Source: an uncultured Enterobacteriaceae bacterium (GTDB lineage Bacteria > Pseudomonadota > Gammaproteobacteria > Burkholderiales > SG8-39). From it: 35,189 bases of DNA. Of the stretch, positions 5,062 through 30,277 are shown piece by piece (the first letter of the stretch is position 1; every line of letters starts with the position of its first letter). The notes under the pieces were generated by a model. The model made no database searches. It worked only from the letters and a program-made list of their open reading frames with translations, and had not been told where the DNA came from. The stretch spans positions 1 through 35,189 of the forward strand of contig CAYQVE010000002.1 in assembly GCA_964420785.1 (NCBI GenBank). Reading direction: 5' to 3'. The position numbers and the translations under genes were made by a program.

Positions 5062-5086
5062 ATTTCCCCCAAATCGGCTTCGGGCA

Positions 5087-6106: not shown

Positions 6107-6115
6107 TCCGCGTCG

Positions 6116-6766: not shown

Positions 6767-6784
6767 CGGCTCCCCCGGATCTCC

Positions 6785-7693: not shown

Positions 7694-7700
7694 AGCCGGT

Positions 7701-8147: not shown

Positions 8148-8149
8148 GG

Positions 8150-9136: not shown

Positions 9137-9146
9137 GGTGACTCCT

Positions 9147-10115: not shown

Positions 10116-10122
10116 TCCGCCT

Positions 10123-10533: not shown

Positions 10534-10569
10534 GAGGCTGCCCCTTCTTCTGCTTCTCGGAACGTAGAG

Positions 10570-11733: not shown

Positions 11734-11757
11734 GCGGCGGCGCCTGCCATCGCCCGC

Positions 11758-12075
11758 TCAACCGCCACCGCTGTGGAACGCCGACGATGATCCAAACCCG
11801 CCGCGATTGACGGATGTGGTGCCGACCGCCCGCGAACTGCGCGCCGCATTGGAGTTCGAGCCGTAGCCCGGGCCGTACCAGACGCGTGACGCTCCCGCGG
11901 GACCCGAGCGGTATCCCGGTTCGCAGTATTCCGGACGCCCCCAGTCCTTCTGGCATTCTTCCGCACTGGCATACATGTCCCGATTGGTGTAGCGCGGTCC
12001 GCTGTCGCACGCGGACATTGCGGCCGCTCCCAGCAGGACTACGCTGACGCGCAAACTGGATTTCCGCTGACGCAT
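11758..12075 (-). CDS. DUF1190 (YgiB/YjfM-like) small lipoprotein
   Basis: ATG at 12075 gives the 105-aa MRQRKSSLRVSVVLLGAAAMSAC|DS… (lipobox-like MSAC). It has a YASAEECQKDWGRPEYCE Cys pair and a RGGFGSS…GGG tail resembling E. coli YgiB. Only the last 105 codons of the 535-aa ORF-track entry are credible. Confidence 0.75.
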   Translation of the reverse strand: MRQRKSSLRVSVVLLGAAAMSACDSGPRYTNRDMYASAEECQKDWGRPEYCEPGYRSGPAGASRVWYGPGYGSNSNAARSSRAVGTTSVNRGGFGSSSAFHSGGG

Positions 12076-12098
12076 GGGCCGACAGTATACGAGCGCTT

Positions 12099-13514: not shown

Positions 13515-14467
13515 TCCAGCCGGATCTTCGCTTCCCGGATCAATTTGCCGAGGCGCTCTTTTTCCGAGCGGATGTGGGCGGCGAACTGCTCCGGAGTGCC
13601 GCCGATCGGCTCCGCACCCTCCGCGAGCAGGCTCGTCCTCACGTCGGGCTGCGCCAGCGCTTTCACCAGCTCGGCGTTGAGTCTCGCGACGATTTCCCGC
13701 GGCGTTCCCGCCGGCGCGAGCACGCCGTACCAGGAGCTCGCTTCGTAGCCGGGGAGGCCCGATTCCGCGATCGTCGGAAGGTCCGGCATCGAAGCCAGGC
13801 GCCGCGTCCCCGTCACCGCGATGGCTCTCAATTTTTCCGCCTTGACGTGAGGCAGGATCGCAACCACGCTGCTGAACATGAGCTGCACCCGGCCGCTCAG
13901 GAGGTCGGTGAGCGCCGGCGACAGTCCCTTGTAGGGCACGTGGACCATGTCCACGCCCGTCATCGAATCGAACATCACCGCGGCGAGGTGGGACGAGCTG
14001 CCGTTGCCGTTCGAGGCGTAGTTGAGCTGCCCCGGTCTGGAGCGCGCGAGAGCGACGAAGGCCTTGAACGAATCGGCCGGAACCGACGGATGCACCACCA
14101 GCACGAGCGGCGCCGATGCGAGCAGCGCCACGGGCGCGAAGTCGTGGATCGGGTCGTAGGGAAGACTATCGTTCAGATTCGGATTGACAGCGTGACTCCC
14201 GACGCCGCCGAGGAACAGCGTGTAGCCGTCGGGCGCGGCCTTCGCCGCGAGCTCCGCGCCCAGCGCGCCTCCTGCTCCAGGCCGGTTGTCGATGACGAGC
14301 GGCTGGCCGAGGCTGTCGGACAGTCGCTTGCCGACCAGGCGCGCGACGTTGTCGTTCCCGCCTCCCGCGGCGAACGGAACGATGAGGCGGATCGGCTTCG
14401 CCGGATACTGAGCGAGCGCGGCCGCCGCTGCGACCGACGCGGCGAATGCCGCGAGCGACGCAGCCAT
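13511..14467 (-). CDS. Bug-family (TctC-like) substrate-binding protein
   Basis: ATG at 14467 gives MAASLAAFAASVAAAAALAQYPAKPIRLIVPFAAGGGND…. A GTG 9 nt upstream (14476, VSRMAAS…) is an equally plausible start. The 577-aa ORF-track extension is not credible. Confidence 0.85.
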   Translation of the reverse strand: MAASLAAFAASVAAAAALAQYPAKPIRLIVPFAAGGGNDNVARLVGKRLSDSLGQPLVIDNRPGAGGALGAELAAKAAPDGYTLFLGGVGSHAVNPNLNDSLPYDPIHDFAPVALLASAPLVLVVHPSVPADSFKAFVALARSRPGQLNYASNGNGSSSHLAAVMFDSMTGVDMVHVPYKGLSPALTDLLSGRVQLMFSSVVAILPHVKAEKLRAIAVTGTRRLASMPDLPTIAESGLPGYEASSWYGVLAPAGTPREIVARLNAELVKALAQPDVRTSLLAEGAEPIGGTPEQFAAHIRSEKERLGKLIREAKIRLE

Positions 14468-15632: not shown

Positions 15633-17246
15633 GTGGGGATCAAGCAGCTCCTGGCCGGTCCGGGTTATCCCGATGACGCAGAGCGCGACGCGCTCGCGCG
15701 CATCTTCAATATCGTCTGCCTTGCGGTGATCCTGGCGCTGGGCGTCGCCATGTTCACAAACCTTTTTTTCAGCCGGGCCGGCTTCCCGGTCGTTCTGCCC
15801 GCGGTTTTCGCGTGCGTCGCCGCGCTGATCGCCGCGGCACGCCTGGGCTACCTCCGGGTCGCGAGCAACTTGTTGCCGGCTGTCATTCTGGCGGGATCCG
15901 CGAATCTCCTGCTCACCCGGGACGGCGTGCACGACACCGGTGTCATCACCATCGCCGGAATGCTGGTCGTCAGCGGCATCCTGCTGACGCGGCGCACGCT
16001 TATGATTTTCACGATGGCTGCGTTGGCGGTGGTCGTGTCCACGGGCTACGCGGAGATCTCGGGCCTGTTGCACAACCGTTTCAGCTCGTTCACGGATCTG
16101 CGTTATGTGGTAGGGGTGTGCCTTGTTTTCGTCATCATCGCCGTCACCGTCCACCTTCTCGCGGAAAGCCTGTTCACGAGTCTGCGCCAGGCCCAGGAAA
16201 AAAGCGCTGCGCTCGGCGAATCGGAGGCGCGCCTTGCGAAGATGATCGAGGCAAGTCCGGAGGCGATCACGATTGCGAGCGTCGAGGACGGGACGTTCAT
16301 TCTGGTGAATCCCGCCGGCCAGCGGCTTTGCGGCTACACCCGCGAGGAGTTGATCGGCACGAGCGCCCTGAAGCTCGGGTTCTATGCCGATCCGGAGGAC
16401 CGGGACAGAATCGTCGCGGATCTGCGGCGCGACGAAGTCGTACATGGGCGTGAAATCCGCCTGCGGCACAAGAGCGGAGAATTGCGCGACATACTCATTT
16501 CGGCGGCCCTGATCGATTTCAAAGGCAAGAAGCTCATCCTGTTCCAGGGGATAGACATCACCGAGCGAAAGAACGCCGAGAAAGCGCTTCGCGAGCACGA
16601 AGAGCTGCTGCGGGAATTGTCCGCGCATCACGACTCGGTGCGCGAAGGAGAGCGCGCCCGCATCGCGCGCGAGATCCACGACGAGCTGGGCCAGGCCCTC
16701 ACGGCGCTCAAGATGGACCTCTCCGTCCTGACCCTGAAGTTCGGCGAAGCCACGCCCCAGATCAGGGAACAGGTGCAGGACCTGAAGGGACGGGTCGATG
16801 CCATCATCCAGGTCGTGAGGGACGTGGCGACCGCCTTGCGGCCGGCTGCGCTCGACCTCGGTATCGTGCCGGGCGTGGAGTGGCTGGTCGAGGAGTTCCA
16901 GAGGCGAAGCGGAGTCCGCTGCACGGTCAGCGTCGCGGACAGCGACATTGCCCTGGGCGAGGACCGGAGCATCGTGCTGTTCCGCATCGTGCAGGAATCG
17001 CTGACGAACGTCTCCCGGCACGCCGGCGCGCGCAACGTGCAGATCCTGCTCGATCACGACGCCGAGCGCATTCGGCTGGACGTCGAGGACGACGGGGTCG
17101 GATTCGACGTGGACGCGGCGCGCCGCAAGAAAACCTTCGGTTTGCTCGGCATGCATGAGCGGGTGATCATGCTGCGCGGGGAGTTGAGCATCACCAGCGC
17201 GCCCGGCGGCGGTACCCGCGTCTCCGTGTCCATGCCGATCGCGTAG
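15633..17246 (+). CDS. Sensor histidine kinase: six-TM membrane module + PAS + HisKA_3 + HATPase (NarX/LiaS-type)
   Basis: GTG 15633. About six closely spaced TM helices with almost no periplasmic loops. PAS region (…MIEASPEAITIASVEDGTFILVNPAGQRLCGYTREELIG…). H-box ERARIAREIHDELGQALTALK. N/G boxes (ESLTNVSRHAGA…, DDGVGF, GLLGMHERV). Confidence 0.9.
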   Translation: MGIKQLLAGPGYPDDAERDALARIFNIVCLAVILALGVAMFTNLFFSRAGFPVVLPAVFACVAALIAAARLGYLRVASNLLPAVILAGSANLLLTRDGVHDTGVITIAGMLVVSGILLTRRTLMIFTMAALAVVVSTGYAEISGLLHNRFSSFTDLRYVVGVCLVFVIIAVTVHLLAESLFTSLRQAQEKSAALGESEARLAKMIEASPEAITIASVEDGTFILVNPAGQRLCGYTREELIGTSALKLGFYADPEDRDRIVADLRRDEVVHGREIRLRHKSGELRDILISAALIDFKGKKLILFQGIDITERKNAEKALREHEELLRELSAHHDSVREGERARIAREIHDELGQALTALKMDLSVLTLKFGEATPQIREQVQDLKGRVDAIIQVVRDVATALRPAALDLGIVPGVEWLVEEFQRRSGVRCTVSVADSDIALGEDRSIVLFRIVQESLTNVSRHAGARNVQILLDHDAERIRLDVEDDGVGFDVDAARRKKTFGLLGMHERVIMLRGELSITSAPGGGTRVSVSMPIA

Positions 17247-17249: not shown

Positions 17250-17882
17250 ATGAAAACGATCAGGATACTCGTGGCCGATGACCACGCCGTGGTGCGGCGG
17301 GGCTTGAGGCACATACTGGACACGACGCCCGATCTCGCCATCGCCGGCGAGGCCGCAAGCGGCGCGGAGGTCCTCGAGAAGCTGCAGGCCGGCGAGTTCG
17401 ACGTCCTGCTGATGGACATCACGATGCCCGCCACCAATCCTGTCGAGCTGATCGCGCGCATCAAGGCGCAGCATCCTCACGTCGCCATGCTCGTTCACAG
17501 CATGCACGCGGAGGGACCTGTCGCCTCGCGAATGCTGAAAGCGGGTGCGTCCGGCTACATCACCAAGGACAGCGAGCCCGAGCAGCTGCTTGCGGCCCTG
17601 CGAAAGGTCGCCGCGGGCGGAAGGTACATCGGTGCGGAACTCGCCGAGCAGCTCGCCTTCGGCAACAGTGCCGGCAGGCCGCTGCACGAGCTGCTCTCCG
17701 ACCGGGAGAGCCAGGTATTCTTCCTGCTCGCCTCCGGAAAGACCCTCAAGGCCATCGCGAGAGAGCTCCACCTCAGTCCGAAGACGGCGAGCACCTATAA
17801 AACGAGAATCATGCAGAAGCTCAATCTGCAATCCGACGCCGAGCTCATCCGCTACGCCCTCGCAAACCACCTGGTGAAGTAG
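17250..17882 (+). CDS. NarL/FixJ-family response regulator (REC + LuxR-type HTH)
   Basis: ATG lies 3 nt after the kinase stop. MKTIRILVADDHAVVRRGL…VLLMDITMP…GYITKD… plus HTH LSDRESQVFFLLASGKTLKAIARELHLSPKTASTYKTRIMQKL. Confidence 0.92.
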   Translation: MKTIRILVADDHAVVRRGLRHILDTTPDLAIAGEAASGAEVLEKLQAGEFDVLLMDITMPATNPVELIARIKAQHPHVAMLVHSMHAEGPVASRMLKAGASGYITKDSEPEQLLAALRKVAAGGRYIGAELAEQLAFGNSAGRPLHELLSDRESQVFFLLASGKTLKAIARELHLSPKTASTYKTRIMQKLNLQSDAELIRYALANHLVK

Positions 17883-18066: not shown

Positions 18067-18699
18067 ATGCCGATCACGACTTTGATTGCCGACGACCACA
18101 CGCTGGTGCGCGAGGGTCTGCGCTCGCTGCTCGCGGCGCACGCGAGCATCGACGTCGTCGGCTTTGCCGCGAACGGCCGCGAGGCGGTGCGCGAAGCGCT
18201 GCGACTGCGGCCTGAAGTCGTGCTCATGGACATCTCGATGCCCGAGCTGAACGGCATCGACGCGACCCGGCAGCTCCTCGACCGCCATCCCGCGGCCAAG
18301 GTGATCATCCTGTCCATGCACGCCACGATCGAGCACTACCACCGCGCGGTCGGCGCCGGCGCCCGGGGCTATCTGCTCAAGGAATCCGCCACCGAGGAAA
18401 TCGCCGAAGCGGTACGCACCGTGCACATCGGCCGGCAATTCCTCAGCCGCAGGATCGCTGCCAGCTTTCAGCCCCGGTCCGACACGGAGTCGCCGCTCGA
18501 CAGCCTGTCGCGGCGCGAGCGCGAGATTCTCCAGCTGGTCGCGGAGGGCCACTGCAGCGCGAAGATCGGGGCCCTCATCTGCATCTCGCCGAAGTCGGTC
18601 GACACCTACCGCAGCCGCCTGATGCAGAAACTGGGAATGCGGGGCATGCCCGACATGGTGAAATTTGCCATCCGGCACGGGCTCACTTCGCTCGAATGA
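18067..18699 (+). CDS. NarL/FixJ-family response regulator (REC + LuxR-type HTH), no adjacent kinase
   Basis: ATG 18067 follows GAGGGA. MPITTLIADDHTLVREGL…VVLMDISMPELNG…GYLLKE… plus HTH LSRREREILQLVAEGHCSAKIGALICISPKSVDTYRSRLMQKL. Confidence 0.92.
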   Translation: MPITTLIADDHTLVREGLRSLLAAHASIDVVGFAANGREAVREALRLRPEVVLMDISMPELNGIDATRQLLDRHPAAKVIILSMHATIEHYHRAVGAGARGYLLKESATEEIAEAVRTVHIGRQFLSRRIAASFQPRSDTESPLDSLSRREREILQLVAEGHCSAKIGALICISPKSVDTYRSRLMQKLGMRGMPDMVKFAIRHGLTSLE

Positions 18700-18816
18700 T
18701 CCGGGAACCTGTAACGGGCGCAGGCGGCATTCAAGGTTTCCCGACAGATCGGCCCTGTGTCCGCCGCTAAACTGCGGCGACTCTTGATTACAGACTCTCA
18801 TTCGACGAAAGAGACG

Positions 18817-19218
18817 ATGAACGGTACACCCCACCCAGCCCGACCTTCGATCCTGGTCGTCGAAGACCATCGATCCCTGCGGCTCAGCGTCGTGAACTGG
18901 CTCCAGCTCCGGTTTCCCGGAAGCTTGGTCCAGGGCGTCGAATCCGGGGAAGAGGCGCTCGCGCATGCCCGTGCCGCCTGCCCGGAGGTCGTGCTCATGG
19001 ACATCAACCTCCCGGGCATCGACGGACTCGAGGCAACCTGCCGCATGAAGGCCCAGGCGCCGAAAACAGCCGTCGTGATACTCAGCACGCACGACACTCC
19101 CCGTCACCGCCTCGCGGCCGCAAAAGCCGGCGCCGCCGGATACATCGCGAAGCGCGACATGGAAACGCTGCTCGAGGCGACTGTCGAATGCCTGCTTCAG
19201 TCGCGCCCGCGCTCATGA
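18817..19218 (+). CDS. Stand-alone receiver (CheY-like, NarL-type receiver without an output domain)
   Basis: ATG 18817 gives MNGTPHPARPSILVVEDHRSLR…VVLMDINLPGIDG…AAGYIAKRD (133 aa). The stop overlaps the next start (ATGA at 19215-19218). Confidence 0.85.
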   Translation: MNGTPHPARPSILVVEDHRSLRLSVVNWLQLRFPGSLVQGVESGEEALAHARAACPEVVLMDINLPGIDGLEATCRMKAQAPKTAVVILSTHDTPRHRLAAAKAGAAGYIAKRDMETLLEATVECLLQSRPRS

Positions 19219-21041
19219 CTCACGACGTCCTCACGATGATCAGGGTACGACCCATCTCGCTGCTGCGCTGCGTTGCGCGGCTCCTGAAGAAGATCGCTCC
19301 CGCGCACGCCGTTTCGGCAAGACCGCGCGCGAGCGCGGCGGAAATCGAGCGGGGCGAATTGCTGCGCCGCTGCTCGCTCGAGGGCCTGTGGGATTGGGAC
19401 CTCCGCAACGACAGAGTCCATTACTTTCCCCGTTTCCGCGAGCTGCTGGGGTACTCCGCGGAAGAACCCTTGAACCGGTTCCAGCTGGCCTTTCATTCAG
19501 AGGACGTCGAGCGCATGAGACAGTCGATGCGCCGCCTTTTCGAGGAACAGGTTCCGATCGACGAGGAATTCCGGTTGCGATGCAAGAACGGCAGCTTCCG
19601 CTGGTTCCGCGGGCGCGGACACGCGGTCTGGGACGCTCGCGGCAAGCCCCTGCGTTTCGCCGGATCCATCACCGACATCAGCGGCTACAAGGAGACCGAG
19701 CTGCGCCTGCTCTACCTCGCCGATCACGACGTACTGACCGGTCTGCCCAACCGGCGCCTGTTCCTTTATCGCCTGTGCCAGGGCATCTCCGGCGCGCGAG
19801 ACTCAGGCCGCTCGCTCGCGGTTCTCTTCATCGATCTGGACCGGTTCAAGCAGATCAACGACGTCCTCGGACACGACGCAGGAAACCAGGTCCTCTGCGA
19901 GGCGGCCAAGCGCATACGCGGCGCCGTGCGCGACGAAGACACAGTTTCGCGGCTCGGCGGCGACGAATTCACGGTTCTCCTGGAAGGGGTCGAGGCGGAG
20001 TCGCGCGTTTCCGCGGTCGCGGACCGGATCCGCTCGGAGCTCAATCGTCCGTTTGCACTGGCCGAGCGCGAGGTCTACATCTCCGCGAGCATCGGGATCG
20101 CCGTCTTTCCCCGCGACGGCGAGTCGGCCGAAGAGCTGCTCAAGCGCTCAGACGTGGCCATGTACCAGGCGAAAAAGCACGGCCGCGACAACCACCAGTT
20201 CTACTCCGCAGAGTCCGAGACCCGCATTTCCCGCGGGCTCGACATGGAGACCCGCCTGCGCCGTGCGCTCGAGTACGGCGAGCTCGAAGTTCACTATCAG
20301 CCGCAAGTCGGCTTCGCCAGCGGTGAGATCAATTCGGTCGAGGCGCTGCTCCGCTGGAACAACCCGGAGCTCGGCTGGGTTGCGCCGGCGCAGTTCATAC
20401 CGCTTGCCGAAGAGACCGGGCTCATTCAGCCGATCGGCGCGTGGGTCCTCGAGACCGCCTGCGCGCAGGCGAAGGCCTGGCAGGACGCCGGCCTCCGGCC
20501 CATCAGGATGTGCATCAACGTGTCCGCGCGGCAGCTCGACGCGAGGTTCGTCGAGACAGTCTCCCGGGCGCTCGCCGAGACGGCGCTTGCGCCTGCGCGC
20601 CTCGAGCTGGAAATCACCGAGGGCGTCATGGTCGGCAAGGACCCCGACACCGAGGCCGTGCTCCAGGCGATGCGGGCACTGGGCGTCGGTTTCGCCATCG
20701 ACGACTTCGGCACCGGCTATGCGACCTTCGATTATCTCAAGCGCTTCCCCGTGCACACCCTGAAACTGGACGGATCGTTCGTTCGCGGCGTTTGCGACAG
20801 CAGCAACGACGTCGCTATCGTCGATGCGACCATCGCCTTGGCGCGAAGCTTCGGCCTCAGGGTCGTTGCAGAGGGCGTAGAGACCGCCGAGCAGCATGGG
20901 CTGCTCAAGGAACTGGGCTGCGACGACTGCCAGGGCTATTACACCTTCAGGCCTCTCCCGGCCGCGGCGCTGGAAAAACTGCTGGCCCCGAAGCATCAAG
21001 TTTTCCCTACAGACCGGCAGGGGCCTGCGACTGCAGACTAG
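19215..21041 (+). CDS. PAS-GGDEF-EAL protein (putative c-di-GMP synthase/phosphodiesterase)
   Basis: PAS region (GLWDWDLRNDRVHYFPRFRELLGY…HSEDVERM…). GGDEF intact at nt 19956-19970, with an RDED I-site-like motif 5 aa upstream. EAL intact at nt 20340-20348, plus DDFGTGY and EGVETAEQ motifs. No receiver domain of its own. Confidence 0.92.
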   Translation: MTHDVLTMIRVRPISLLRCVARLLKKIAPAHAVSARPRASAAEIERGELLRRCSLEGLWDWDLRNDRVHYFPRFRELLGYSAEEPLNRFQLAFHSEDVERMRQSMRRLFEEQVPIDEEFRLRCKNGSFRWFRGRGHAVWDARGKPLRFAGSITDISGYKETELRLLYLADHDVLTGLPNRRLFLYRLCQGISGARDSGRSLAVLFIDLDRFKQINDVLGHDAGNQVLCEAAKRIRGAVRDEDTVSRLGGDEFTVLLEGVEAESRVSAVADRIRSELNRPFALAEREVYISASIGIAVFPRDGESAEELLKRSDVAMYQAKKHGRDNHQFYSAESETRISRGLDMETRLRRALEYGELEVHYQPQVGFASGEINSVEALLRWNNPELGWVAPAQFIPLAEETGLIQPIGAWVLETACAQAKAWQDAGLRPIRMCINVSARQLDARFVETVSRALAETALAPARLELEITEGVMVGKDPDTEAVLQAMRALGVGFAIDDFGTGYATFDYLKRFPVHTLKLDGSFVRGVCDSSNDVAIVDATIALARSFGLRVVAEGVETAEQHGLLKELGCDDCQGYYTFRPLPAAALEKLLAPKHQVFPTDRQGPATAD

Positions 21042-21059
21042 CTGCACCGACGGATGGCC

Positions 21060-21069
21060 CGAACGTTCG
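21060..21069. promoter_or_regulatory. Perfect 10-bp palindrome CGAACGTTCG upstream of the first chemosensory-cluster gene
   Basis: Located in the 60-nt spacer 21042-21101, 32 nt upstream of ATG 21102. Function unknown. Confidence 0.2.
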
Positions 21070-21101
21070 CAAACCACGAAAACGACGAGTCCGAGGAAAC
21101 C

Positions 21102-21857
21102 ATGAATTCAACCAGCGTTGCCGTGATCGGTTTCAGCGCCCAGGAACGAAACGTCTTGAAGGGCATATTCGATCTCACCTCGCGGCGCCCGACCTCGTTC
21201 GCCCCGTTCGATCCGGACATGGGCGAAGAGCCCGGCCTGTTCCTGGTCGACGCGAGCAGCAAGGAATTCGTGAATGAAACACTCAGCGTCGTCGTCACGC
21301 ACCCCGTTCCGGTCGTGCTGGTGGGAGACTCGAACTGCGGCACTCCCTACCCTTTCGTCAAGCGACCGATCAAATGGGTGCAGCTGCTCAAGCTCCTGGA
21401 AAACTCGGTCGCACCCGCCGCGCCGTCCCAGCCCCGGGCCCGCGAAATCGACTCCGCGCTGGTCGTGGATGACAGCCTGCCCGTGCGCAAGTTCATGGAA
21501 TTGAAGCTCGCGCCCTACTCCATCGGCGTGGACTTTGCCGAATCGGGCGAAAAGGCCATAGCTCTCGCCGCCGAGAAACACTATACCTGCGTGTTTCTCG
21601 ACGTGATGCTCCCGGGCGTGGACGGATACCAGGTCTGCAAAGCGATCAAGAAGAAGAAGCATGAAGGAAAGCCGACCGCCGTGGTCATGCTCACCGGGAA
21701 GACGTCGCCCTTCGACAAGATCCGCGGCACCATGGCCGGCTGCGACGCCTATCTGACCAAGCCGGTTGACGAGGAAAGACTGCTGGAAGTCATTTTGAAG
21801 TTCATTCCGAGGCGCGAGCGTGCCGATGCCGCCTTCGATGCAACCCAATCGACCTGA
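21102..21857 (+). CDS. PilG-like response regulator with an N-terminal pseudo-receiver extension
   Basis: ATG 21102 follows GAGGA. The C-terminal REC (res ~117-235; DD at VVDDS, acceptor FLDVMLP, TGKTSPFDKIRGTMAGCDAYLTKP) resembles P. aeruginosa PilG (SSKDGLFDKAKG…DQYLTKP). The N-terminal ~100 aa have a receiver-like beta/alpha periodicity, but GF replaces the acidic DD pair. Confidence 0.85.
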   Translation: MNSTSVAVIGFSAQERNVLKGIFDLTSRRPTSFAPFDPDMGEEPGLFLVDASSKEFVNETLSVVVTHPVPVVLVGDSNCGTPYPFVKRPIKWVQLLKLLENSVAPAAPSQPRAREIDSALVVDDSLPVRKFMELKLAPYSIGVDFAESGEKAIALAAEKHYTCVFLDVMLPGVDGYQVCKAIKKKKHEGKPTAVVMLTGKTSPFDKIRGTMAGCDAYLTKPVDEERLLEVILKFIPRRERADAAFDATQST

Positions 21858-21919
21858 TGCGCGCGGCAAATCGCGTCGACACCCGTATCGAATCAAACCT
21901 ACAGCAAAGGAGAAACAAC

Positions 21920-22282
21920 ATGGCAATTCGCAAAGTCCTGATCGCGGACGATTCATCGACCGATCTCAAGAATCTGGAGCAGATCGTCTCCGGCGCCGGC
22001 TATCACGTCATCACGGCCGCATCCGGCAAGGAAGCGCTGGCCAAGGCGAAAACCGAGCGCCCTGACGCGATACTGCTCGACGTCATCATGCCCGACATGA
22101 ACGGCTTCCAGGCGTGCCGTGCGATCACGAGCGACGCCGAGACCAGGAACATCCCGGTGATACTCGTTTCCAGCAAGGGCGAGAAAACCGACAAGGTGTG
22201 GGGTGAAGAGCAGGGTGCGAAGAGCTACGTCACCAAGCCCTACACGCCCGATCACATCCTGAGCCAGCTGCGGGCGCTCTAG
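21920..22282 (+). CDS. PilH/PixH-like single-domain response regulator (copy 1)
   Basis: ATG 21920 lies 7 nt after AAGGAG. The 120-aa protein reads MAIRKVLIADDSSTD…ILLDVIMPDMNG…VSSKGEKTDKVWGEEQGAKSYVTKP. This is the SSKGE..D..WG..QGA..Y..KP signature of PilH/PixH-type CheYs. Confidence 0.92.
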   Translation: MAIRKVLIADDSSTDLKNLEQIVSGAGYHVITAASGKEALAKAKTERPDAILLDVIMPDMNGFQACRAITSDAETRNIPVILVSSKGEKTDKVWGEEQGAKSYVTKPYTPDHILSQLRAL

Positions 22283-22327: not shown

Positions 22328-22690
22328 ATGGCAATCCGCAAAGTACTGGTGGCCGACGATTCGACCACCGACCTCAAGAACATGGAGCACATCTGCTCCG
22401 GCGCAGGCTATCAGGTGATCACCGCCGCATCCGGCAAGGAGGCCGTGGCCAAGGTGAAGGCCGAGCGTCCGGACGCGGTGGTCCTCGACGTCATCATGCC
22501 GGAGATGAACGGCTTCCAGGCGTGCCGCGCGATCACGAGCGACGCCGACACCAAGAACATCCCGGTGATACTCGTTTCCAGCAAGGGCGAGAAAACCGAC
22601 AAGCTCTGGGGCCAGGAACAAGGCGCCCGCGGCTACGTCACCAAGCCCTTCACGTCCGACGATCTGCTCAAAGAGCTCAAAGCCCTGTAA
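22328..22690 (+). CDS. PilH/PixH-like single-domain response regulator (copy 2, tandem paralogue)
   Basis: 120 aa, about 79% identical to copy 1 by hand alignment (25 differences in 120 residues), with the same length and motifs. Confidence 0.92.
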   Translation: MAIRKVLVADDSTTDLKNMEHICSGAGYQVITAASGKEAVAKVKAERPDAVVLDVIMPEMNGFQACRAITSDADTKNIPVILVSSKGEKTDKLWGQEQGARGYVTKPFTSDDLLKELKAL

Positions 22691-22704: not shown

Positions 22705-23253
22705 ATGAACCTTGTCGAACCATCGCAGCCCCCGCTTTCGCCCGTCGCGGCGCTCGCCGGCGAGTTCGTGCTGCCCGAGAGCGGCGCCGCCGGGGAGTCG
22801 CGCGCGGATTCGGCGGAGCGGCTTGCATTCCGGGTCGGCCCCGTCGGGATGCTGTGCGCGTCGGACGCGGGGCGCGAAGTCGTGCTGCCGCCGCCGGTGA
22901 CGCGCCTGCCGCACCTGCCGGCGTGGATGCTCGGGGTCACCAACGTGCGAGGCACCCTGCTCCCCGTCGTCGATCTGGCCGCGGCCTACGGAGTGGAGCA
23001 CGAGACCGCGCTTCACCCCTACCTGCTTGTCATGGGCACCGCCGAGGATCCGCTCGGCCTGCTGGTGGACGGGTTGCCCGTGATCGCGCGCCTCGATGAG
23101 AAGGAAAGAATGCGCGGCGTGCCGCCGCACCCTGAGCGTCTGACCGGGCACGTCGCGGGCGGCTACGAACGCGAAGGAGTGGTGTGGCTCGACGTCAATG
23201 CGGGGTGGCTGTTCGCAACCCTGGGAAATGCATCGCAGCTCGAGCGCGAGTGA
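22705..23253 (+). CDS. CheW-like coupling protein (PilI-like)
   Basis: ATG 22705 gives a 182-aa protein with the CheW pattern …LAFRVGPVGMLCASDAGREVV…LPHLPAWMLGVTNVRGTLLPVVDLAAAYG…LLVMG…LGLLVDGLPVI…. The ORF-track N-terminal extension overlaps the preceding gene. Confidence 0.88.
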   Translation: MNLVEPSQPPLSPVAALAGEFVLPESGAAGESRADSAERLAFRVGPVGMLCASDAGREVVLPPPVTRLPHLPAWMLGVTNVRGTLLPVVDLAAAYGVEHETALHPYLLVMGTAEDPLGLLVDGLPVIARLDEKERMRGVPPHPERLTGHVAGGYEREGVVWLDVNAGWLFATLGNASQLERE

Positions 23254-23310: not shown

Positions 23311-24873
23311 GTGTCACAACAAGGAAGCATGGCGATATTCAAGAAATTCAGCATCCGGAGTCGTCTCGCGATGATGGCGGGGCTCATGACCGTGCTGCTG
23401 CTCGGCATCGGCCTGCTCGGCTTGATCGCTCTGGGCAATTTTCAGGACCGGTCGGCAACGAACGTGGATTCGGGCGCCTTGTCGATTAAGGCGGTCGATA
23501 CCGCGAGAAGCGCTCAGGTCCATTTTAAGAAACAGGTGCAGGAGTGGAAAGACCTCTTGTTGCGTGGCTTCGAGCGCGAGAACTTCGACAAGTACCTCGC
23601 TCAATTCACCAGCGAAGAGGCGGCGGTCCAGCGGGAACTCTCAACGCTCAAGGATCTCATGAAGCGGCAGAGTCTGAGCACTGACGCCGTGGATCGCCTA
23701 CTCAATGTTCACAAGGAATTGGGCGCCAAGTATCGCGAGGCTTTGAAGAGCTACGACCAGGGGTCCCGCGTCGTGGACGGACTCGTCAAAGGAATGGACC
23801 GCGCGCCGACGGATGCCATGGATGCGGTCGTAAAGGACATCCAGGACCGGGCGAGCGCTAGCTTTACGGACATGAAGGCGCAATCGGTCGCGGAATACAG
23901 CTTTTCGAGGAACGTGATGGTTGCTATGGTCGTCGCTGCCCTTGCGCTCGGTGCTCTGCTCGCGTTTTTCACCGCGCGCCACATCACGCGCGCCGCCGGC
24001 CAGCTCGCCACCACGGTGGGCAAGGTCTCGGCCGGCGACTACGAGGCGCGCTCGAAGGTGAAGAGCGGCGACGAGCTCGAAGCCCTGAGCGCCGCTTTCG
24101 ACACCATGCTGGACGAGCGCGTCGCGACGCTGGCGAAAAAGGAAAAGGACAGCGAAGCGCTCAACAACTCGATCATCGACATCCTGCGCGCGGTCGCCAA
24201 GGCGGCGCAGGGTGACTTGACGATACAAGCCCCGGTGCGAGAGGACATCACCGGCGCGCTCTCGGACGCCATCAACTCCATGTCCAGCGCGACCGCCAAG
24301 ACGCTTGCGGGCGTGAACAACGTTTCGCACGAAGTGCGTTCCGCCTCCCAAGATGGCCGCGACACGGTGCTGCAGACCGCGCGCGGAATGAATGAAATCC
24401 GCGGTTCGATCCAGGAAACCGGCAAGCGCATCAAGCGCCTGGGAGAGCGCTCGCAGGAAATCACCGGCATCGTGAAGCTGATCGACGATATTTCGGAACG
24501 CACCTCGGTGCTCGCGCTGAACGCCAACATGCAGGCGGCCATGGCGGGCGAAGCCGGGCGCGGGTTCCGCGTGGTGGCCGACGAAGTGCAGCGCCTGGCC
24601 GAGCGCTCCAAGCAGGCGACCGACCAGATCGGCAAGCTGGTGACCACCATTCAGTCGGAGACCAACGACACCATGGCGACCATGGACCGGGCGATCGGCG
24701 AAGTGGTCAAGGGCGGCGAGCTTGCCGAAAAGGCGGCGCAACAGGTGACGCACCTGGACGAGCTCGGCGGCCAGCTGATCGAATCGATCCAGGCATTCAA
24801 GCTGCCGGCGGAACTGGTCGGCGGATCGGCCGCTGCCAAGCAGCGTGCGGGCGAAACCCGCCGGGCGGCGTAG
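23311..24873 (+). CDS. Methyl-accepting chemotaxis protein (PilJ-like position): 4-helix-bundle-type periplasmic domain, HAMP, short signalling domain
   Basis: GTG 23311 has a strong SD. TM1 (res ~20-42), a helical ~155-aa periplasmic region, TM2 (~201-221), HAMP (…[26 protein letters not shown]), a second HAMP-like GDLT segment, and the tip [38 protein letters not shown]. Confidence 0.92.
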
Positions 24874-24877
24874 GGCC

Positions 24878-27769
24878 ATGCCCCGTCTGGAAGCCCTGGC
24901 GGTCCTCGCCGACGAGGTCGGCGAGGTCGCGGACCGGATGTCGGCCGCCCTCGCCGACCTGAACGACTCCTCCAACGACGAGCGTTTGCGCGAAGCGCTC
25001 GATTTCTTCGCCGAGCAGAACGGGAGGATAGTCACCGTCACCGAGATGCTCAACCTGACGGGCTTGCGTCGGCTGTGCGCCCGAATACAGGAGAACGTCG
25101 CGCTGCTGCAGGCCGCCGGCGTCCCCCCGCGCGAGCCGCTCGCCGTGTTCCTGCGGGGTCCCAACCTGATCGTGGAGTATCTGCGCGCGCCCAAGGACCC
25201 CGCAAGCTGCGCGGCGCTCACGCAGTACCTGAGCAATCCCCTCTGGCCGCAGCCCGCCCGAGCAGCTGAAGCGGCAGAGATCCAGGCCCTGCTCGCCGAC
25301 ATCGACGAGTCGGCCTCGGAAGCCGAGCTCATGCCCGAGCGGCCCGCCGAGGCCAGCCCCGAAGACGTCGCGCTCGATGTCGCACCGGACGTGAACCCCG
25401 AGCTCCTGGAAGCATTTCTCGCCGAGGCGCCGCTGCAGGCCGGCGCATATACGAGCCTGGTGGAGCAGGTGACTTCGGGCGGCGGCGCGCCCGGCGAAAT
25501 GCTCAACGAGGCGCGGCGCATCGTCCATACGATCAAGGGCGCGGCCAACACGGTCGGCGTGCGCGGCGTGGTCACGCTGACCCATCATCTCGAAGATCTG
25601 CTCGAATATCTCGCCGAAAGCGCGCTCAGGCCGCAAGGCAGGCTCGCCAAACTCCTCATGGACGCGGCCGACTGTCTGGAGATGATGCTGGAGTCGCTCA
25701 TCGGCGCCGAAGTTCCACCCCAGCAAGCGCACTCGGTGGTGCAGCGCCTCCTCGACGCAGCCAACGCCATCGATCGCGGCGAGGATCCGGGGGCGGCAGT
25801 GGCGGAGAAACCCGATTCCGGGATCACGCCCTCGCCTGCCGGGAAAGGCGCAAAGCCCGAAGCGACGGCGCCCAAGGCGGAGCCCGCGCCCAAGGTGGAG
25901 TCCAGACCCGAAGCCCCTCCATCCAAGGAACCGGCGGCGAAAATTCGCGTCGCCGGGGCGACCATAGACGAGATGCTGCGCCTGTCGGGAGAAATGACCA
26001 TTGGCCGGGCGCACGTCCAGGAGCGCCTGCACCAGGCCACCGGTCTGGCAGCCGAGATGAGCGAGCGCCACGGCCTGCTGCAAAAGCGCGCGAGCGAGAT
26101 CGATCACATCATCACCGTGCGCGGCGTCGCCGCAGGCGAGAAGCTGGGCGCCGTCGCCCAGGCGGCCGGCACCTCGGTGTTCGACGCGCTCGAGCTCGAC
26201 CAGTACAGCGAGCTGCACGGCGCGGTGCACGGTTTCCTCGAGACCATCGCCGACTTGCAGACGCTGGAGTCGCGGCTGCTCGACACCCTGTCGGGGATCG
26301 AAACCTCTATCACCCAGGAAGGGCTCATCAACAACGAGCTGCACGAGCACGCCATGCGCGCCCGCATGGTGCCCGCCGCCAGCATCGAGCCGCGGCTCGC
26401 GCGCACCGTACGCCAGGTGTGCGAGGCCACGGGGAAAGCCGCGCGCTTCGAGCTCCGCGGCGGCGACGTGATGCTCGACGATCACGTGATCAACGACATT
26501 ATCAGTCCGCTTTCGCACCTGTTGCGCAACGCCGTTGACCATGGGATCGAGGAGCAGAAAGTGCGCGCGACGCTCGGCAAACCCGAAGCAGGCGCGATCG
26601 TGCTTTCATTCTCGCGCGAGGGCAATCATCTCGTGATCCGCTGCGAGGACGACGGCGCCGGCCTCGATTTGCGGCGCATCCACACCTCCGCCGTCGAACG
26701 CGGGATCGTGCGCGGTGATGTGAGCTTGAGCGAGTCCGAGATCGCGCAGATTATTCTTGTTCCAGGCTTCAGCACGCGCTCGACCGCCTCGGAAGTGTCC
26801 GGGCGCGGCGTCGGCATGGACGTGGTGAACGTGGCGGTGAGCAAGCTCAAGGGCACGATCGACATTTCCACCGTCCCCGGCAAAGGCTGCCGCTTCACCC
26901 TGCGGCTGCCGCTCACGCTGGGCACGGCGCACTGCCTGGTGGTGCGCGCGGGCGGCGAGATTGCCGCGATTCCGACCGACATCCTCGACCGTGCCGTTTA
27001 CCAGGGCGCGCTGAACGTCGTGCGCCTTGGCGAGCAGTATGTCTACCGCGAGGAGAACGAAAGTCTCGAGGCGCGGGACCTCGCCCATCTGCTCGGTTCC
27101 GCGGGCGAGCGCTCGCTCGGCGACGCGGAGGACAACCGCCCGGTCATCGTGGTGAACGACACCAGAGGCAAGAAGGCGGTGGTGGTGGACGCGCTGCTTT
27201 CCGGGCGCGACCTCGTGGTCAAGAGCCTTGGCCAGTACCTGGCGAGCGCCAAAGACGTCATCGGCGCCGCGGTGCTCGGCGACGGGCGCGTGCTGCCGGT
27301 GCTCGACCTGCAGGCGCTGCTGCGCGCTCAGCATGGCACCACGGCTGTCGCGCGGCCCTACCTCGTGCACAGCAGCCCTGCGGCGCGCGAGGCGCGGACC
27401 GTCGACATCCTGGTGGTGGACGATTCCCTCAGCGTGCGCCAGGCCTTGACCCTGCTCTTGAACGGCGAAGGCTATTCGGTGCACACCGCGAAGGACGGCG
27501 TCGAAGCGCTCGAACAGGTCGCCAAGAACCGGCCGGCGGCCGTGGTGGCCGATCTCGAGATGCCGCGCATGAACGGGCTCGAGCTCACCTCGCGGCTGCG
27601 CGCCGATCCGCGCACGCGCGGATTGCCGGTGATCATGGTCACCTCGCGCTCCAGCGACAAGCACCGCCAGCAGGCGCAGCTCGCGGGCGTTGATGTCTAC
27701 CTCACCAAGCCGTACCGCGACGCCGAGCTCCTGTCGAAACTGCAAGCCATGCTGAGCAAGGCGGCATAA
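24878..27769 (+). CDS. CheA-like hybrid histidine kinase (ChpA/PilL-like): His-free N-domain, one Hpt, dimerisation, HATPase, CheW-like P5, C-terminal REC
   Basis: ATG 24878 lies 4 nt after the MCP stop. Hpt motif RRIVHTIKGAANTVG (His codon 25526-25528). LLRNAVDHGIE, DDGAGLD and GRGVGMDVV boxes. P5 region (AHCLVVRAGGEIAAIPTD…VVVDALLSGRDLVVK…VLPVLDLQAL). REC (ILVVDDSLSVR…VVADLEMPRMNG…VYLTKP). Confidence 0.93.
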   Translation: MPRLEALAVLADEVGEVADRMSAALADLNDSSNDERLREALDFFAEQNGRIVTVTEMLNLTGLRRLCARIQENVALLQAAGVPPREPLAVFLRGPNLIVEYLRAPKDPASCAALTQYLSNPLWPQPARAAEAAEIQALLADIDESASEAELMPERPAEASPEDVALDVAPDVNPELLEAFLAEAPLQAGAYTSLVEQVTSGGGAPGEMLNEARRIVHTIKGAANTVGVRGVVTLTHHLEDLLEYLAESALRPQGRLAKLLMDAADCLEMMLESLIGAEVPPQQAHSVVQRLLDAANAIDRGEDPGAAVAEKPDSGITPSPAGKGAKPEATAPKAEPAPKVESRPEAPPSKEPAAKIRVAGATIDEMLRLSGEMTIGRAHVQERLHQATGLAAEMSERHGLLQKRASEIDHIITVRGVAAGEKLGAVAQAAGTSVFDALELDQYSELHGAVHGFLETIADLQTLESRLLDTLSGIETSITQEGLINNELHEHAMRARMVPAASIEPRLARTVRQVCEATGKAARFELRGGDVMLDDHVINDIISPLSHLLRNAVDHGIEEQKVRATLGKPEAGAIVLSFSREGNHLVIRCEDDGAGLDLRRIHTSAVERGIVRGDVSLSESEIAQIILVPGFSTRSTASEVSGRGVGMDVVNVAVSKLKGTIDISTVPGKGCRFTLRLPLTLGTAHCLVVRAGGEIAAIPTDILDRAVYQGALNVVRLGEQYVYREENESLEARDLAHLLGSAGERSLGDAEDNRPVIVVNDTRGKKAVVVDALLSGRDLVVKSLGQYLASAKDVIGAAVLGDGRVLPVLDLQALLRAQHGTTAVARPYLVHSSPAAREARTVDILVVDDSLSVRQALTLLLNGEGYSVHTAKDGVEALEQVAKNRPAAVVADLEMPRMNGLELTSRLRADPRTRGLPVIMVTSRSSDKHRQQAQLAGVDVYLTKPYRDAELLSKLQAMLSKAA

Positions 27770-28270
27770 ATGTCAGCGGTGCTCAAATCCGATCCCGCCT
27801 CCGTCGCGGCCCCAGTCGAAGGCTGGCTGGTGCTGGCGATGGAGGAACTGCGGCTGGCGCTGCCGCAGAGCGAAGCGCTCCAGATCGAGCTTGCTTTCGA
27901 CCTCGAGCATGTGGACGACGGAGGGCCGGAGATCGGCCAGCTCTCGCGCCGCAACGGCAAGCCCTGGCCCGCCTACTGCCTGGATTGGGCGCTTCGCGTG
28001 CGGAGCTCGACTCCGGCGGAGCGCCGCCTGTGCGTCTTTTTCGGCACGCAGGACGACGCACGCGGCATCTTGTGCGACCGGGTGTGGCCTCTTGCCGCGG
28101 ACGCGGATCTCCGCCCGGAGCCGCCGCGGAGATGCATGAGCGGCCCGCGTTCGCCGACGATCGGTTTGGCGAGATTCCAAGACGGCGTTGCGGTCGTAAC
28201 GAGTGCCGCCGAGCTGAAGGCTTATCTCGATTTTCTCGCGGAGGAAGATCATGGCAGGCGCCGCGACTAG
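27770..28270 (+). CDS. Divergent/degenerate CheW-like protein (ChpC-like position)
   Basis: ATG 27770 directly abuts the ChpA-like stop (TAAATG). GC3-rich codons in this frame. The 166-aa protein has a CheW-like spacing of hydrophobic strands (GWLVLAMEELRLALPQSEALQIE…, RLCVFFGTQDDARGILCDRVWPL, GLARFQDGVAVVTSAAELKAYL) but lacks the N(L/V)RG motif. Confidence 0.6.
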   Translation: MSAVLKSDPASVAAPVEGWLVLAMEELRLALPQSEALQIELAFDLEHVDDGGPEIGQLSRRNGKPWPAYCLDWALRVRSSTPAERRLCVFFGTQDDARGILCDRVWPLAADADLRPEPPRRCMSGPRSPTIGLARFQDGVAVVTSAAELKAYLDFLAEEDHGRRRD

Positions 28271-29504
28271 GGGCTGGGTCATGGATGTCGGCGCGGGTTG
28301 GCGCGTGGCGGTCGGCGCCCATCGGGTCGTCGAGTATCTGCTGTCGCCGCCCACTCACAGCCTGCCGCGCATGCCGGCGCATTGCCTGGGCGTCCTCATC
28401 TGGCAGGAACGGATGATACCGCTGCTCGATCTCGCCCCGGTTCTATCGGAGCGAGCTCGAGCGCAGGAGCACGGCGTGCGCCGCGCAGTGGTCCTCGCCT
28501 ACCAGGAAATGCCCGGGCAAGCCTTGCGCTACGGAGCCTTGGTGGTGCGCGCGGCGCCGGTCGAGGTCTGGGCGAGCGACGACATGGCTTGCCCGTTGCC
28601 CGAAGATCCCCCGGCGCTCAAGCATTTCAGCTGCTCCTGTTTCCTGCATCAAGAAAAAGCGATACCCATCCTGGATACGACGCGGCTCTTCGCGACGGCG
28701 CTGACTTTGGCCCCGGGGCAACGCAAGGATGAAGCTGAAGCGAACACCATCGTGGAGGCAAGCCCTCCGCCGAGGCGCTCCGCGGACTTTGAGAATACGC
28801 AACCGCTGGAGGTCGCAGCCGCGGCGCCCCTTTCTCCCGCACCACAACCGGAAACCTTCGCGGAGCCCGCCCAGTCTGCAGTCGAAGCCCCGCAGGTTTC
28901 GGCGACGCCTGCCGAGGCGAGCGTCGACCGGCGGCCGAGCGTTGAACCGCTGCCGGCGGTTTCCGCGGAAGACGTTCCTGCCGCGGAAACGCAAGACCGG
29001 AATCAAAATGCCGATCTTCCTCGCGACATCGGCCGCAAACTGTCCGCCGCGACTCGATCCTGGCTCCTCGGCGCGGCGCTCGCGGTCACACTGCTCGCCA
29101 CAGCATTGCACCCATTTTCGCCGGGTTCCCTCCGTGACGTGTCGGAACCCGCTGCTTGGACGCCGTCCGCAACAGGTCCCGCGAGCGACGCCGCGCCCCA
29201 GCGAGTCGTCGCGATCGAGTCCGAGGAGCTGACCCTGACGGTCGAACGCCTCTCCGGAGGCGACGCGCGACCGGCCTTCGCGAAACCCGCTGCGCCCGCG
29301 AGCGGCGCGCCGCCGAGACCCGTGAATCCCGACACTCGCACGCACGTCGTGGTGCGCGGCGACACGCTGTGGGACATCGCGAAGAAATATGTCGGTGATC
29401 CTTTCCGTTATCCGGAGCTGCGGGAGCTCAGCAATATCCGGAACCCCGATCTGATCCATCCGGGCGACATCGTTCGCATCGAGATTCGAGAGAATCGCAA
29501 GTAA
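28251..29504 (+). CDS. CheW-like domain / acidic Pro-Ala linker / single TM / C-terminal LysM domain fusion protein
   Basis: ATG 28251 lies 5 nt after GGAGGA and overlaps the previous gene by 20 nt. Res ~15-150 are CheW-like (VVEYLLSPPTHSLPRMPAHCLGVLIWQERMIPLLDLAPVL…YGALVVRAAPVEV…AIPILDTTRLF). Res ~150-260 are a low-complexity P/A/E linker. The TM is WLLGAALAVTLLATAL (nt ~29058-29114), with R/K on its N side. The LysM is HVVVRGDTLWDIAKKYVGDPFRYPELRELSNIRNPDLIHPGDIVRI (nt ~29343-29480). Confidence 0.85.
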   Translation: MAGAATRGWVMDVGAGWRVAVGAHRVVEYLLSPPTHSLPRMPAHCLGVLIWQERMIPLLDLAPVLSERARAQEHGVRRAVVLAYQEMPGQALRYGALVVRAAPVEVWASDDMACPLPEDPPALKHFSCSCFLHQEKAIPILDTTRLFATALTLAPGQRKDEAEANTIVEASPPPRRSADFENTQPLEVAAAAPLSPAPQPETFAEPAQSAVEAPQVSATPAEASVDRRPSVEPLPAVSAEDVPAAETQDRNQNADLPRDIGRKLSAATRSWLLGAALAVTLLATALHPFSPGSLRDVSEPAAWTPSATGPASDAAPQRVVAIESEELTLTVERLSGGDARPAFAKPAAPASGAPPRPVNPDTRTHVVVRGDTLWDIAKKYVGDPFRYPELRELSNIRNPDLIHPGDIVRIEIRENRK

Positions 29505-29528
29505 ACACAACCCAACTAAGGAGCCTTC

Positions 29529-29894
29529 ATGCCAATCAAGAAAATCCTGATCGTCGACGATTCACCGACCGACCGCCAATTCCTGCTTGAGAAGCTCTCC
29601 AAGCACGGCTACCAGTGCGTGACCGCCGAGAGCGGAGCCGAGGCGATCGCCAAGTCGAAGAGCGAGCAGCCGGACCTCATTCTAATGGACGTCGTCATGC
29701 CCGGCACGAACGGGTACGAGGCGACGCGCGCCATCGCCCGCGACGACTCGACCCGGCACATCCCGGTGATCATCTGCACCGGAAGAAAGCAGGAGACCGA
29801 CCGCCTCTGGGGCCTGCGCCAGGGCGCGATCGACTATCTGATGAAGCCGATCGACCACCACGTGCTCCTGGAGAAAATCGCGGCCTTGGCATGA
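29529..29894 (+). CDS. PilH/PixH-like single-domain response regulator (third copy, diverged)
   Basis: ATG 29529 lies 5 nt after AAGGAG. The 121-aa protein reads [19 protein letters not shown]…[13 protein letters not shown]…[25 protein letters not shown]. Confidence 0.92.
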
Positions 29895-30277
29895 CGCCCG
29901 AACCTGTCATCAACTACACGATCCGCCTGGACGGCGATCTGTTGCGGGCCCACATATGGGGCAGAGAAACCGACAATCCTCCGTCTCACATTTGCAGGGC
30001 GATCCTCCAAGAATGCCGTCGAAACGGGCTGAAGCGCATCCTGGTCGAGCTAACTCAGAGGCGGCCGCTCTCCGACGCGAGCCAGTACCTTCTGGTGGAA
30101 AGGCTGCCCGCCCTCGGGCTCACGCACGAGCACCGGATCGCTCTCGTCCATCACACGCCCGGACTCTACAAGGCGAACGACATGATCGATCTCGTCGCCG
30201 AGAATCGCGGCATCAACGTGCGCAACTTTCCCGACGTGCGCTCGGCGACCGAGTGGCTGCAGTCGCCCGCTCCCTAG
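29891..30277 (+). CDS. Hypothetical protein, possible STAS/SpoIIAA-like fold, translationally coupled to the third CheY
   Basis: ATG 29891 overlaps the CheY stop (ATGA). The 128-aa globular-looking translation (YTIRLDGDLLRAHIWGRE…LKRILVELTQRRPLS…HRIALVHHT…VRNFPDVRSATEWL) follows the pattern of SpoIIAA-like/DUF-type STAS proteins as I recall them. The fold assignment is unverified. Confidence 0.65.
   Translation: MTPEPVINYTIRLDGDLLRAHIWGRETDNPPSHICRAILQECRRNGLKRILVELTQRRPLSDASQYLLVERLPALGLTHEHRIALVHHTPGLYKANDMIDLVAENRGINVRNFPDVRSATEWLQSPAP

Follow-up and report, generated by a model that had tools for sequence, protein, structure and literature searches.

How chemoreceptor arrays are placed in the cell and kept from moving is understood in only a few model species, including those of Vibrio, where the ParC, ParP and HubP proteins are involved. 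In Escherichia coli, arrays are placed by stochastic nucleation or by curvature. The CheW-like domain of ParP integrates into arrays and the other end of the protein tethers them to ParC (PMC5706961); the periplasmic LysM domain of HubP is both necessary and sufficient for polar targeting (PMC8789113). Here we analyse a 35,189-nucleotide stretch of DNA from an uncultured Enterobacteriaceae bacterium (GenBank assembly GCA_964420785.1, contig CAYQVE010000002.1, positions 1 to 35,189), referred to below as the window, and in it a gene whose 417-residue product carries a CheW-like domain and a LysM domain on a single chain that crosses the membrane once. The protein appears to be a CheW-type scaffold equipped with its own membrane and wall anchor and belonging to a large, apparently unstudied family, and its probable role is to fasten an array of chemoreceptors to the cell wall. 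The gene and its parts are as follows.

28251..29504, + strand: gene for a bitopic protein of 417 residues with CheW, linker, transmembrane and LysM parts (open reading frame with ATG start; Pfam CheW and LysM)
28266..28712, + strand: predicted cytoplasmic CheW-like domain, here called type A, residues 6–154 (Pfam, AlphaFold2, Foldseek)
28713..29045, + strand: disordered, acidic Ala/Pro-rich linker, residues 155–265 (composition; predicted local distance difference test score, pLDDT, below 50)
29046..29120, + strand: single transmembrane helix, residues 266–290 (hydropathy, charge bias, AlphaFold2 helix)
29199..29249, + strand: conserved, predicted periplasmic β-hairpin '...LTLTVER...', residues 317–333 (AlphaFold2, family consensus)
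29334..29486, + strand: predicted periplasmic LysM domain of the TsaP/YgaU-like subtype, residues 362–412 (Pfam, AlphaFold2)

With ParP this protein shares an array-integrating CheW-like domain, a flexible region and a position-fixing module (PMC5706961), and HubP, which stands at the end of the ParP–ParC chain, is itself a LysM protein with a transmembrane segment (PMC8789113). ParP, however, is a soluble protein that depends on ParC and HubP and has its CheW-like domain at the C-terminus, whereas the window protein has its CheW domain at the N-terminus, spans the membrane and brings its own LysM domain. It falls outside the ParP family, and we regard the resemblance between the two as functional only. 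The likeness to HubP and FimV is of another kind, consisting of a periplasmic LysM domain, a single transmembrane segment and a long, acidic, low-complexity cytoplasmic region. The order of these parts is inverted, LysM being N-terminal in HubP and FimV (PMC8789113) and C-terminal in the window protein, which moreover has neither tetratricopeptide repeats nor the FimV C-terminal motif (Pfam finds CheW and LysM only) and possesses a CheW domain of its own. TsaP (PDB 6ve2 and 3jc8), which binds peptidoglycan and is a partner of the type IV pilus secretin, is similar in its LysM domain only and has no CheW domain. The CheW, PilI, ChpC and CheV proteins have the CheW fold in common with the window protein, whose gene lies in a chemosensory operon together with that of an ordinary soluble CheW. 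These proteins are nevertheless soluble, CheV adds a receiver domain and not a membrane or wall anchor, and the window protein appears to differ at the positions equivalent to R62 and G63 of E. coli CheW.

The initiation codon of the gene at 28251 is preceded, at a distance of 5 nucleotides, by a strong Shine–Dalgarno-like GGAGGA (28240–28245), and the start of the reading frame shares 20 nucleotides with the upstream open reading frame 27770..28270. Both features were pointed out in a preliminary description of this DNA and are read directly in the sequence. An identical gene is present on two Logan contigs, and the orthologues P0002–P0004 are 75–81% identical. The ratio of non-synonymous to synonymous substitution rates (dN/dS) is 0.34–0.45 over the whole gene; the values given below for individual regions come from a comparison of three orthologues. 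An open reading frame of 355 residues on the opposite strand (28443..29510) was excluded by the + strand homologues and by dN/dS below 1, and it is a by-product of the 66% G+C content. The reading on the + strand is upheld on the same two grounds, and the gene is real, as the preliminary description had argued.

The N-terminal domain is recognised by the Pfam CheW model (PF01584) at residues 13–148, with an E-value of 4.5e-10 and a score of 39.7 bits against a gathering cut-off of 23.5. Residues 1–150 are modelled as all-β with pLDDT above 90 by AlphaFold2, for which 35 homologues of the 417-residue protein were in the input. When the modelled domain was compared with the PDB by Foldseek, the top 17 matches were all CheW or CheA-P5 structures, with template modelling (TM) scores up to 0.77; the best match, 6s1k_C, is CheW from the E. 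coli core signalling unit (E 5.6e-8, TM score 0.76). Model and matches together describe the two-subdomain SH3-like β-barrel of CheW. A phmmer search of the PDB with the N-terminal domain gave no match, and since sequence searches of the PDB yielded either nothing or weak CheW matches, the fold had to come from the structural model. The domain is constrained, with dN/dS of 0.22–0.32. That the N-terminal 150 or so residues constitute a CheW module, as first proposed from the translation, is therefore borne out by the Pfam score and by the modelled fold alike. Residues G57, R62 and G63 of E. coli CheW belong to the CheA/receptor interface, R62 being implicated in the binding of both CheA and receptors (PMC13098124). 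In an hhalign alignment of 33 columns and low probability, G57 is matched by G47 and so is kept in the window protein, and the consensus of type A retains an arginine at the position equivalent to R62.

At the other end of the chain, the Pfam LysM model (PF01476) matches residues 365–410 with an E-value of 2.8e-9 and 37.2 bits, the gathering cut-off being 20.9. AlphaFold2 models a β-α-α-β arrangement with strands at 362–366 and 407–412 and helices at 373–381 and 388–394. The closest solved LysM domains are those of TsaP (6ve2_O, E 1.5e-9; 3jc8, E 2.6e-8). With dN/dS of 0.07–0.21, this is the most strongly constrained region of the gene. Upstream of it lies the β-hairpin, with strands 317–323 and 327–333 modelled at pLDDT 76–92, and its 'TLTVERP' is present in the consensus of an orphan family, type B, described below. 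The periplasmic part consists of about 70 residues including this hairpin, followed by the LysM domain; the spacers are modelled at low confidence and the periplasmic spacer has dN/dS of 0.54–0.76.

The two folded domains are separated by a linker and a membrane helix. Residues 151–264 (114 residues) include 22 Ala, 17 Pro and 12 Glu, and acidic residues (19 Asp and Glu) outnumber basic ones (10 Lys and Arg). Residues 154–265 are disordered in the AlphaFold2 model, and the cytoplasmic linker has dN/dS of 0.48–0.66. The sole hydrophobic segment of the protein spans residues 271–290, with a Kyte–Doolittle mean of 1.65 over 19 residues, and overlaps a modelled helix at 266–285; no N-terminal or other hydrophobic segment is apparent in the hydropathy profile of the 417 residues. 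The 15-residue flanks of this segment carry four Lys and Arg on the N-terminal side against one on the C-terminal side. The same bias is seen in the flanks of 47 homologues (135 against 58) and in the 15-residue flanks of 200 family members (437 facing CheW against 277 facing LysM), and exactly one hydrophobic segment separates CheW from LysM in 200 of 206 family proteins. The predicted topology from hydropathy and the positive-inside analysis, with CheW in the cytoplasm and LysM in the periplasm, accordingly agrees with that proposed in the preliminary description and holds; on the four-part layout of CheW, acidic linker, single helix and LysM, Pfam, hydropathy and AlphaFold2 all concur.

The length of the linker bears on what the protein might reach. 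Across about 216 proteins, the stretch from CheW to the transmembrane helix has a minimum of 93 residues in type A and 107 in type B and a median of 183. At some 0.36 nm per residue, the contour length of the shortest linker is at least 33 nm. Measured heights from membrane to baseplate are 27.5–31 nm (PMC6759762), and the receptor encoded in the window, a protein of 520 residues with its tip motif at 400–431 and the end of its HAMP domain at 268, has an estimated height of about 22–26 nm. The linker lengths thus fit the distance from membrane to baseplate and suffice to span it.

Far from being rare, the layout is common in environmental bacteria, and it is uncharacterised. When 1.84 billion representatives at 50% identity were scanned with a type B profile, 918 proteins reached E ≤ 1e-30; all of the best 150 among them match end to end with at least 305 bits, and Pfam CheW and LysM were both above threshold in all 10 of 10 representatives sampled. 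The names given to such proteins in their sources are generic and none is functional: P0116 is a 'LysM peptidoglycan-binding domain-containing protein [Desulfobacteraceae MAG]', P0118 a 'chemotaxis protein CheW [Thiohalomonadaceae MAG]' and a further member a 'chemotaxis signal transduction protein/LysM repeat protein'. In the literature, which we searched for a CheW–LysM fusion or a membrane-anchored CheW, no description was found; Vass et al., who surveyed the architectures of CheW proteins and counted 111 in Pfam, make no mention of LysM. A tblastn search of plasmids returned LysM-only matches, from actinobacteria. Of the preliminary view that the architecture is both unusual and undescribed, the former part has to be abandoned in the light of the 918 proteins, and the latter stands as far as functional annotation and the literature searched are concerned.

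The relatives of the window protein fall into two types that share its layout to different extents. Type A comprises 20 proteins found with a hidden Markov model of the window protein's CheW domain, none of which is type B. The window CheW domain is 55–82% identical to those of the type A proteins, which are anchored by a transmembrane segment and encoded in the same type of cluster. Only four of the 20, P0001–P0004 (75–100% identical), combine the transmembrane segment with LysM; in the remaining 16, every protein with a complete C-terminus ends in a transmembrane anchor followed by 1–54 periplasmic residues. These LysM-less genes lie in the same type of cluster, downstream of a homologue of the gene for the upstream protein X (contigs L010, L011 and L012). 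Type B proteins, by contrast, have the layout CheW, long linker, transmembrane segment, 'TLTVERP' hairpin and LysM, and their genes are orphans in unrelated neighbourhoods. Examples are P0015, P0116 and P0118, and the one locus listed in a search of genome contigs with the window protein is a gene in a metagenome-assembled genome of Thiohalophilus (L001:8459-10207). The architecture of type B is identical to that of the window protein and the tail is shared, but the CheW domains are only about 28% identical and homology does not extend over the full length: all matches to the window protein from outside type A come through its C-terminal part, with only residues from about 150 to 417 aligning.

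From the transmembrane segment to the LysM domain, the window protein is 64–66% identical to the same type B proteins. The DNA shows a corresponding difference, in the following segment.

29045..29503, + strand: 3′ segment, from the transmembrane helix to the stop codon, apparently acquired from the type B family (nucleotide and protein identity)

In nucleotide sequence this segment shares 74–76% identity with the type B genes of L004–L007 at their 3′ ends. The window and the sister cluster L010 are 78–80% identical in nucleotide sequence up to position 28603, and homology between them returns from 29527. Had the gene descended vertically, its tail should not be so much better conserved than the folded CheW domain to which it is joined, and an exchange of tails by recombination is therefore the economical explanation. 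We consider it well supported by these identities that an ancestral, tail-anchored CheW of the cluster exchanged its transmembrane segment and tail for those of an orphan CheW–transmembrane–LysM paralogue. The mosaic recurs in four sequence clusters defined at 90% identity, with 75–100% identity and from independent samples, and its orthologues keep the context of X and a receiver gene. Both folded domains are under purifying selection as judged by dN/dS, and the mosaic is maintained. Neither the LysM-less sister lineages nor the recombinant tail was foreseen in the preliminary description.

A close relative, P0006, is a protein of 354 residues from a metagenome. Its CheW domain is 82% identical to that of the window protein, and it keeps a type-B-like transmembrane and juxtamembrane segment and ends in '...APQHVLSRQNRK'. 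It looks as if its hairpin and LysM domain had been removed by an in-frame deletion that spared the last residues.

Around the type B genes, a GGDEF-EAL gene adjoins the CheW–LysM gene in L004–L007 (at 11.4–13.7 kb in L004/L006) and lies two genes away in L017 (5496–7292). The family may be tied to cyclic di-GMP (c-di-GMP) signalling, although a sample of three contexts besides the window is too small for a judgement. In L004 and L006 the CheW–LysM, GGDEF-EAL and DctPQM genes stand in a row. The window also starts with DctPQM genes, and many TctC genes occur in it; these DctPQM genes led us to suspect that the window is immediately preceded by a type B orphan, an idea rejected since the DctM proteins are only 33% identical.

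The CheW–transmembrane–LysM gene is one of the last in a long block of signalling genes on the same strand and stands between those for X and for a receiver protein. The other members of the block, and the reading frame that follows it, are listed here.

15633-17246, + strand: PAS-HisKA_3 kinase (Pfam)
17250-17882 and 18067-18699, + strand: two REC-GerE regulators in tandem (Pfam)
18757-19218, + strand: single receiver (Pfam)
19188..21041, + strand: PAS-GGDEF-EAL protein, encoded first in the cluster (Pfam; an orthologue, 74% identical, holds the same position in L010)
21054-21857, + strand: receiver protein with an extra N-terminal domain (Pfam)
21857-22282 and 22328-22690, + strand: receiver proteins (Pfam)
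22705..23253, + strand: soluble canonical CheW of 182 residues in a pilI-like position (Pfam CheW, 67.6 bits)
23311..24873, + strand: transmembrane methyl-accepting chemotaxis protein (MCP) of 520 residues with 4HB/TarH, HAMP and signalling domains (Pfam, hydropathy)
24845..27769, + strand: CheA-REC hybrid kinase with Hpt, dimerisation, HATPase, P5/CheW and receiver domains (Pfam)
27770..28270, + strand: protein X, 166 residues, with a predicted cryptic CheW fold (AlphaFold2 and Foldseek)
29529..29894, + strand: single-domain receiver 3′ of the CheW–transmembrane–LysM gene (Pfam; kept in L010, L013 and L014)
29891-30277, + strand: open reading frame of 128 residues overlapping the stop of the receiver gene by 4 nucleotides

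Protein X is always encoded directly upstream of the anchored CheW, and it occupies this position in L010–L014. It has 24 homologues, all metagenomic. Neither Pfam nor NCBIfam matches X, a search of the PDB with an X profile found nothing, and hhalign gave a probability of 0.1%, that is, no similarity, between X and the type A CheW domain. The AlphaFold2 model (pLDDT 80.6, predicted TM score 0.76) gave a different result, the top 18 Foldseek matches in the PDB all being CheW or CheA-P5. From the model, then, X represents a putative cryptic CheW-like family that sequence censuses would miss. As the model matches only CheW and P5 structures, the operon would encode four CheW-type folds. The suggestion of a degenerate CheW gene upstream thus agrees with the predicted fold and finds no echo in the sequence, for which Pfam and hhalign are negative.

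The order of the genes fits the REC-REC-CheW-MCP-CheA(REC) order of Pil-Chp systems, although Pfam sees one Hpt domain in the kinase and not the several of ChpA. The true start of the CheA-REC gene may be a few codons downstream of 24845, and its best annotated CheA relative among plasmids, on a megaplasmid of S. meliloti, is 32% identical. Among the annotated open reading frames of the window there are no CheR, CheB, pilus or flagellar genes and no ParA/ParC-like gene. The reading frame at 29891-30277 has no Pfam match; gene calling on the Logan contigs L002 and L003 picked it out as well.

The block is rich in receivers, with at least nine receiver domains, the CheA-fused one included, in about 14 kb of one strand from position 15633 on. 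The receiver protein at 21054-21857 has an N-terminal stretch of about 130 residues without a Pfam match, and its position is conserved in L010. The two that follow (21857-22282 and 22328-22690) are tandem paralogues in a pilG/pilH-like position, and each cross-matches the L010 counterpart of the other at about 70–82% nucleotide identity. Further upstream, positions 2718–14098 of the window are syntenic with 11479–20869 of L010 over about 10 kb at 79–84% identity, the syntenic genes being metabolic ones (epimerase, Crp-type regulator, SGL, DHDPS, TctC and MmgE/PrpD). In L010 this metabolic block is directly downstream of the che cluster, whereas in the window it lies some 8–16 kb upstream of the chemosensory genes, and we conclude that the region has been rearranged.

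Taking these observations together, we lean, without strong conviction, towards the view that the window protein is a bitopic inner-membrane coupling protein that serves as a single-polypeptide tether between array and peptidoglycan. Its CheW domain would join the CheA/CheW baseplate at the tips of the co-encoded MCP receptors, the linker would run back along the receptors to the inner membrane and the LysM domain would bind peptidoglycan. One polypeptide would in this way pin an array to a set position on the sacculus or nucleate it there, and the net effect would be that of the Vibrio ParP–ParC–HubP chain collapsed into one protein. The presence of the MCP, CheA-REC, canonical CheW and X in the same operon, an arrangement conserved in L010–L014, the long linkers and the selection acting on both folded domains speak for such a tether. 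A broader proposal, which we hold more tentatively and rate at somewhat short of an even chance, is that CheW–transmembrane–LysM proteins make up a class of trans-envelope array anchors, widespread but so far unrecognised, in which a coupling protein in the receptor baseplate is connected across the inner membrane to peptidoglycan and a linker of at least 93 residues acts as a ruler.

A number of observations weigh against the array-to-peptidoglycan tether. In the short, low-probability hhalign alignment (33 columns), R62 of E. coli CheW is aligned with Q52 and G63 with E53, and the domain is divergent, a type A CheW profile reaching the solved CheWs of the PDB only weakly (E 0.14–0.65). The mean hydropathy of the membrane segment, 1.65, is borderline. 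The same LysM subtype occurs in E. coli Kbp/YgaU (PDB 7pvc), a potassium-binding protein, and LysM for this reason need not imply binding to peptidoglycan. Stretching a coil of 118 residues over about 25 nm carries an entropic cost. Type B genes are mostly far from che genes. Finally, 16 of the 20 type A relatives are without LysM and P0006 has apparently lost it, from which it follows that LysM is not essential to this cluster.

This last point lends weight to the idea that the protein is in the first place a membrane tether, tail-anchoring serving, for example, to nucleate the kinase at the membrane or to keep it there, and LysM adding retention only. A LysM-less transmembrane anchor with a periplasmic tail of 1–54 residues is indeed the state of those 16 CheWs of the same type and cluster, and P0006 keeps the borrowed transmembrane segment in the absence of hairpin and LysM. 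Nevertheless, LysM is more constrained than any other region in the three orthologues (dN/dS 0.07–0.21) and is kept in at least 200 type B proteins, and we judge this reading unlikely, if not lightly set aside. Membrane anchoring may be the core function of the CheW of this cluster, with wall anchoring as an add-on. It is also conceivable, and distinctly more doubtful, that the protein is no array component and that its divergent CheW fold serves to bring a different partner, for instance a receiver protein or a c-di-GMP enzyme, to a fixed position on the wall. Type B orphans outside che clusters, with GGDEF-EAL genes adjacent in L004–L007 and two genes off in L017, would agree with this, as would the PAS-GGDEF-EAL gene heading the window cluster and the apparent lack of conservation of R62 and G63 in the window CheW. 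However, the gene is embedded among those for CheA-REC, X and receivers in the window, an F-R-G motif is kept at the R62/G63 position in the type B consensus, and the uniformly long linkers fit the reach to the baseplate. We know of no CheW-like domain with a partner outside arrays, and count this too against such a role.

That a ligand-binding module in the periplasm and a signalling module in the cytoplasm are united on one chain might suggest a trans-envelope sensor, in which LysM would monitor peptidoglycan or muropeptides and signal their state across the membrane to the kinase. The membrane helix is flanked by disordered linkers, though, and sensing by LysM is on that account very unlikely: about 115 disordered cytoplasmic residues and periplasmic spacers modelled at low confidence offer no rigid path for a signal, and the linkers evolve almost freely. 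To the notion that the gene is a non-functional product of recombination, whether a chimeric pseudogene or a chimera of assembly, we attach scarcely any credence. Its mosaic origin could be cited in support, but the same mosaic is found in four sequence clusters defined at 90% identity from independent samples and sources, the frame is intact and preceded by a strong Shine–Dalgarno sequence, and the dN/dS of each folded domain stays under 0.35.

Should the protein indeed tether arrays to peptidoglycan, as we favour, array positioning by a coupling protein with a covalent tie to the cell wall would join the known mechanisms as a further, simple one, present in hundreds of diverged lineages. Two predictions would follow, namely that linker length tracks receptor length and that loss of LysM frees the array. 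The mosaic origin of the gene implies that the anchoring tail is a portable module, and the predicted fold of X implies that censuses of CheW-like proteins based on sequence miss members of this group. If the wider class of trans-envelope anchors is real, many bacteria without ParC, ParP and HubP could position, immobilise and pass on their arrays with one protein, and the window would show the anchoring module transplanted onto a different CheW by a swap of tails.

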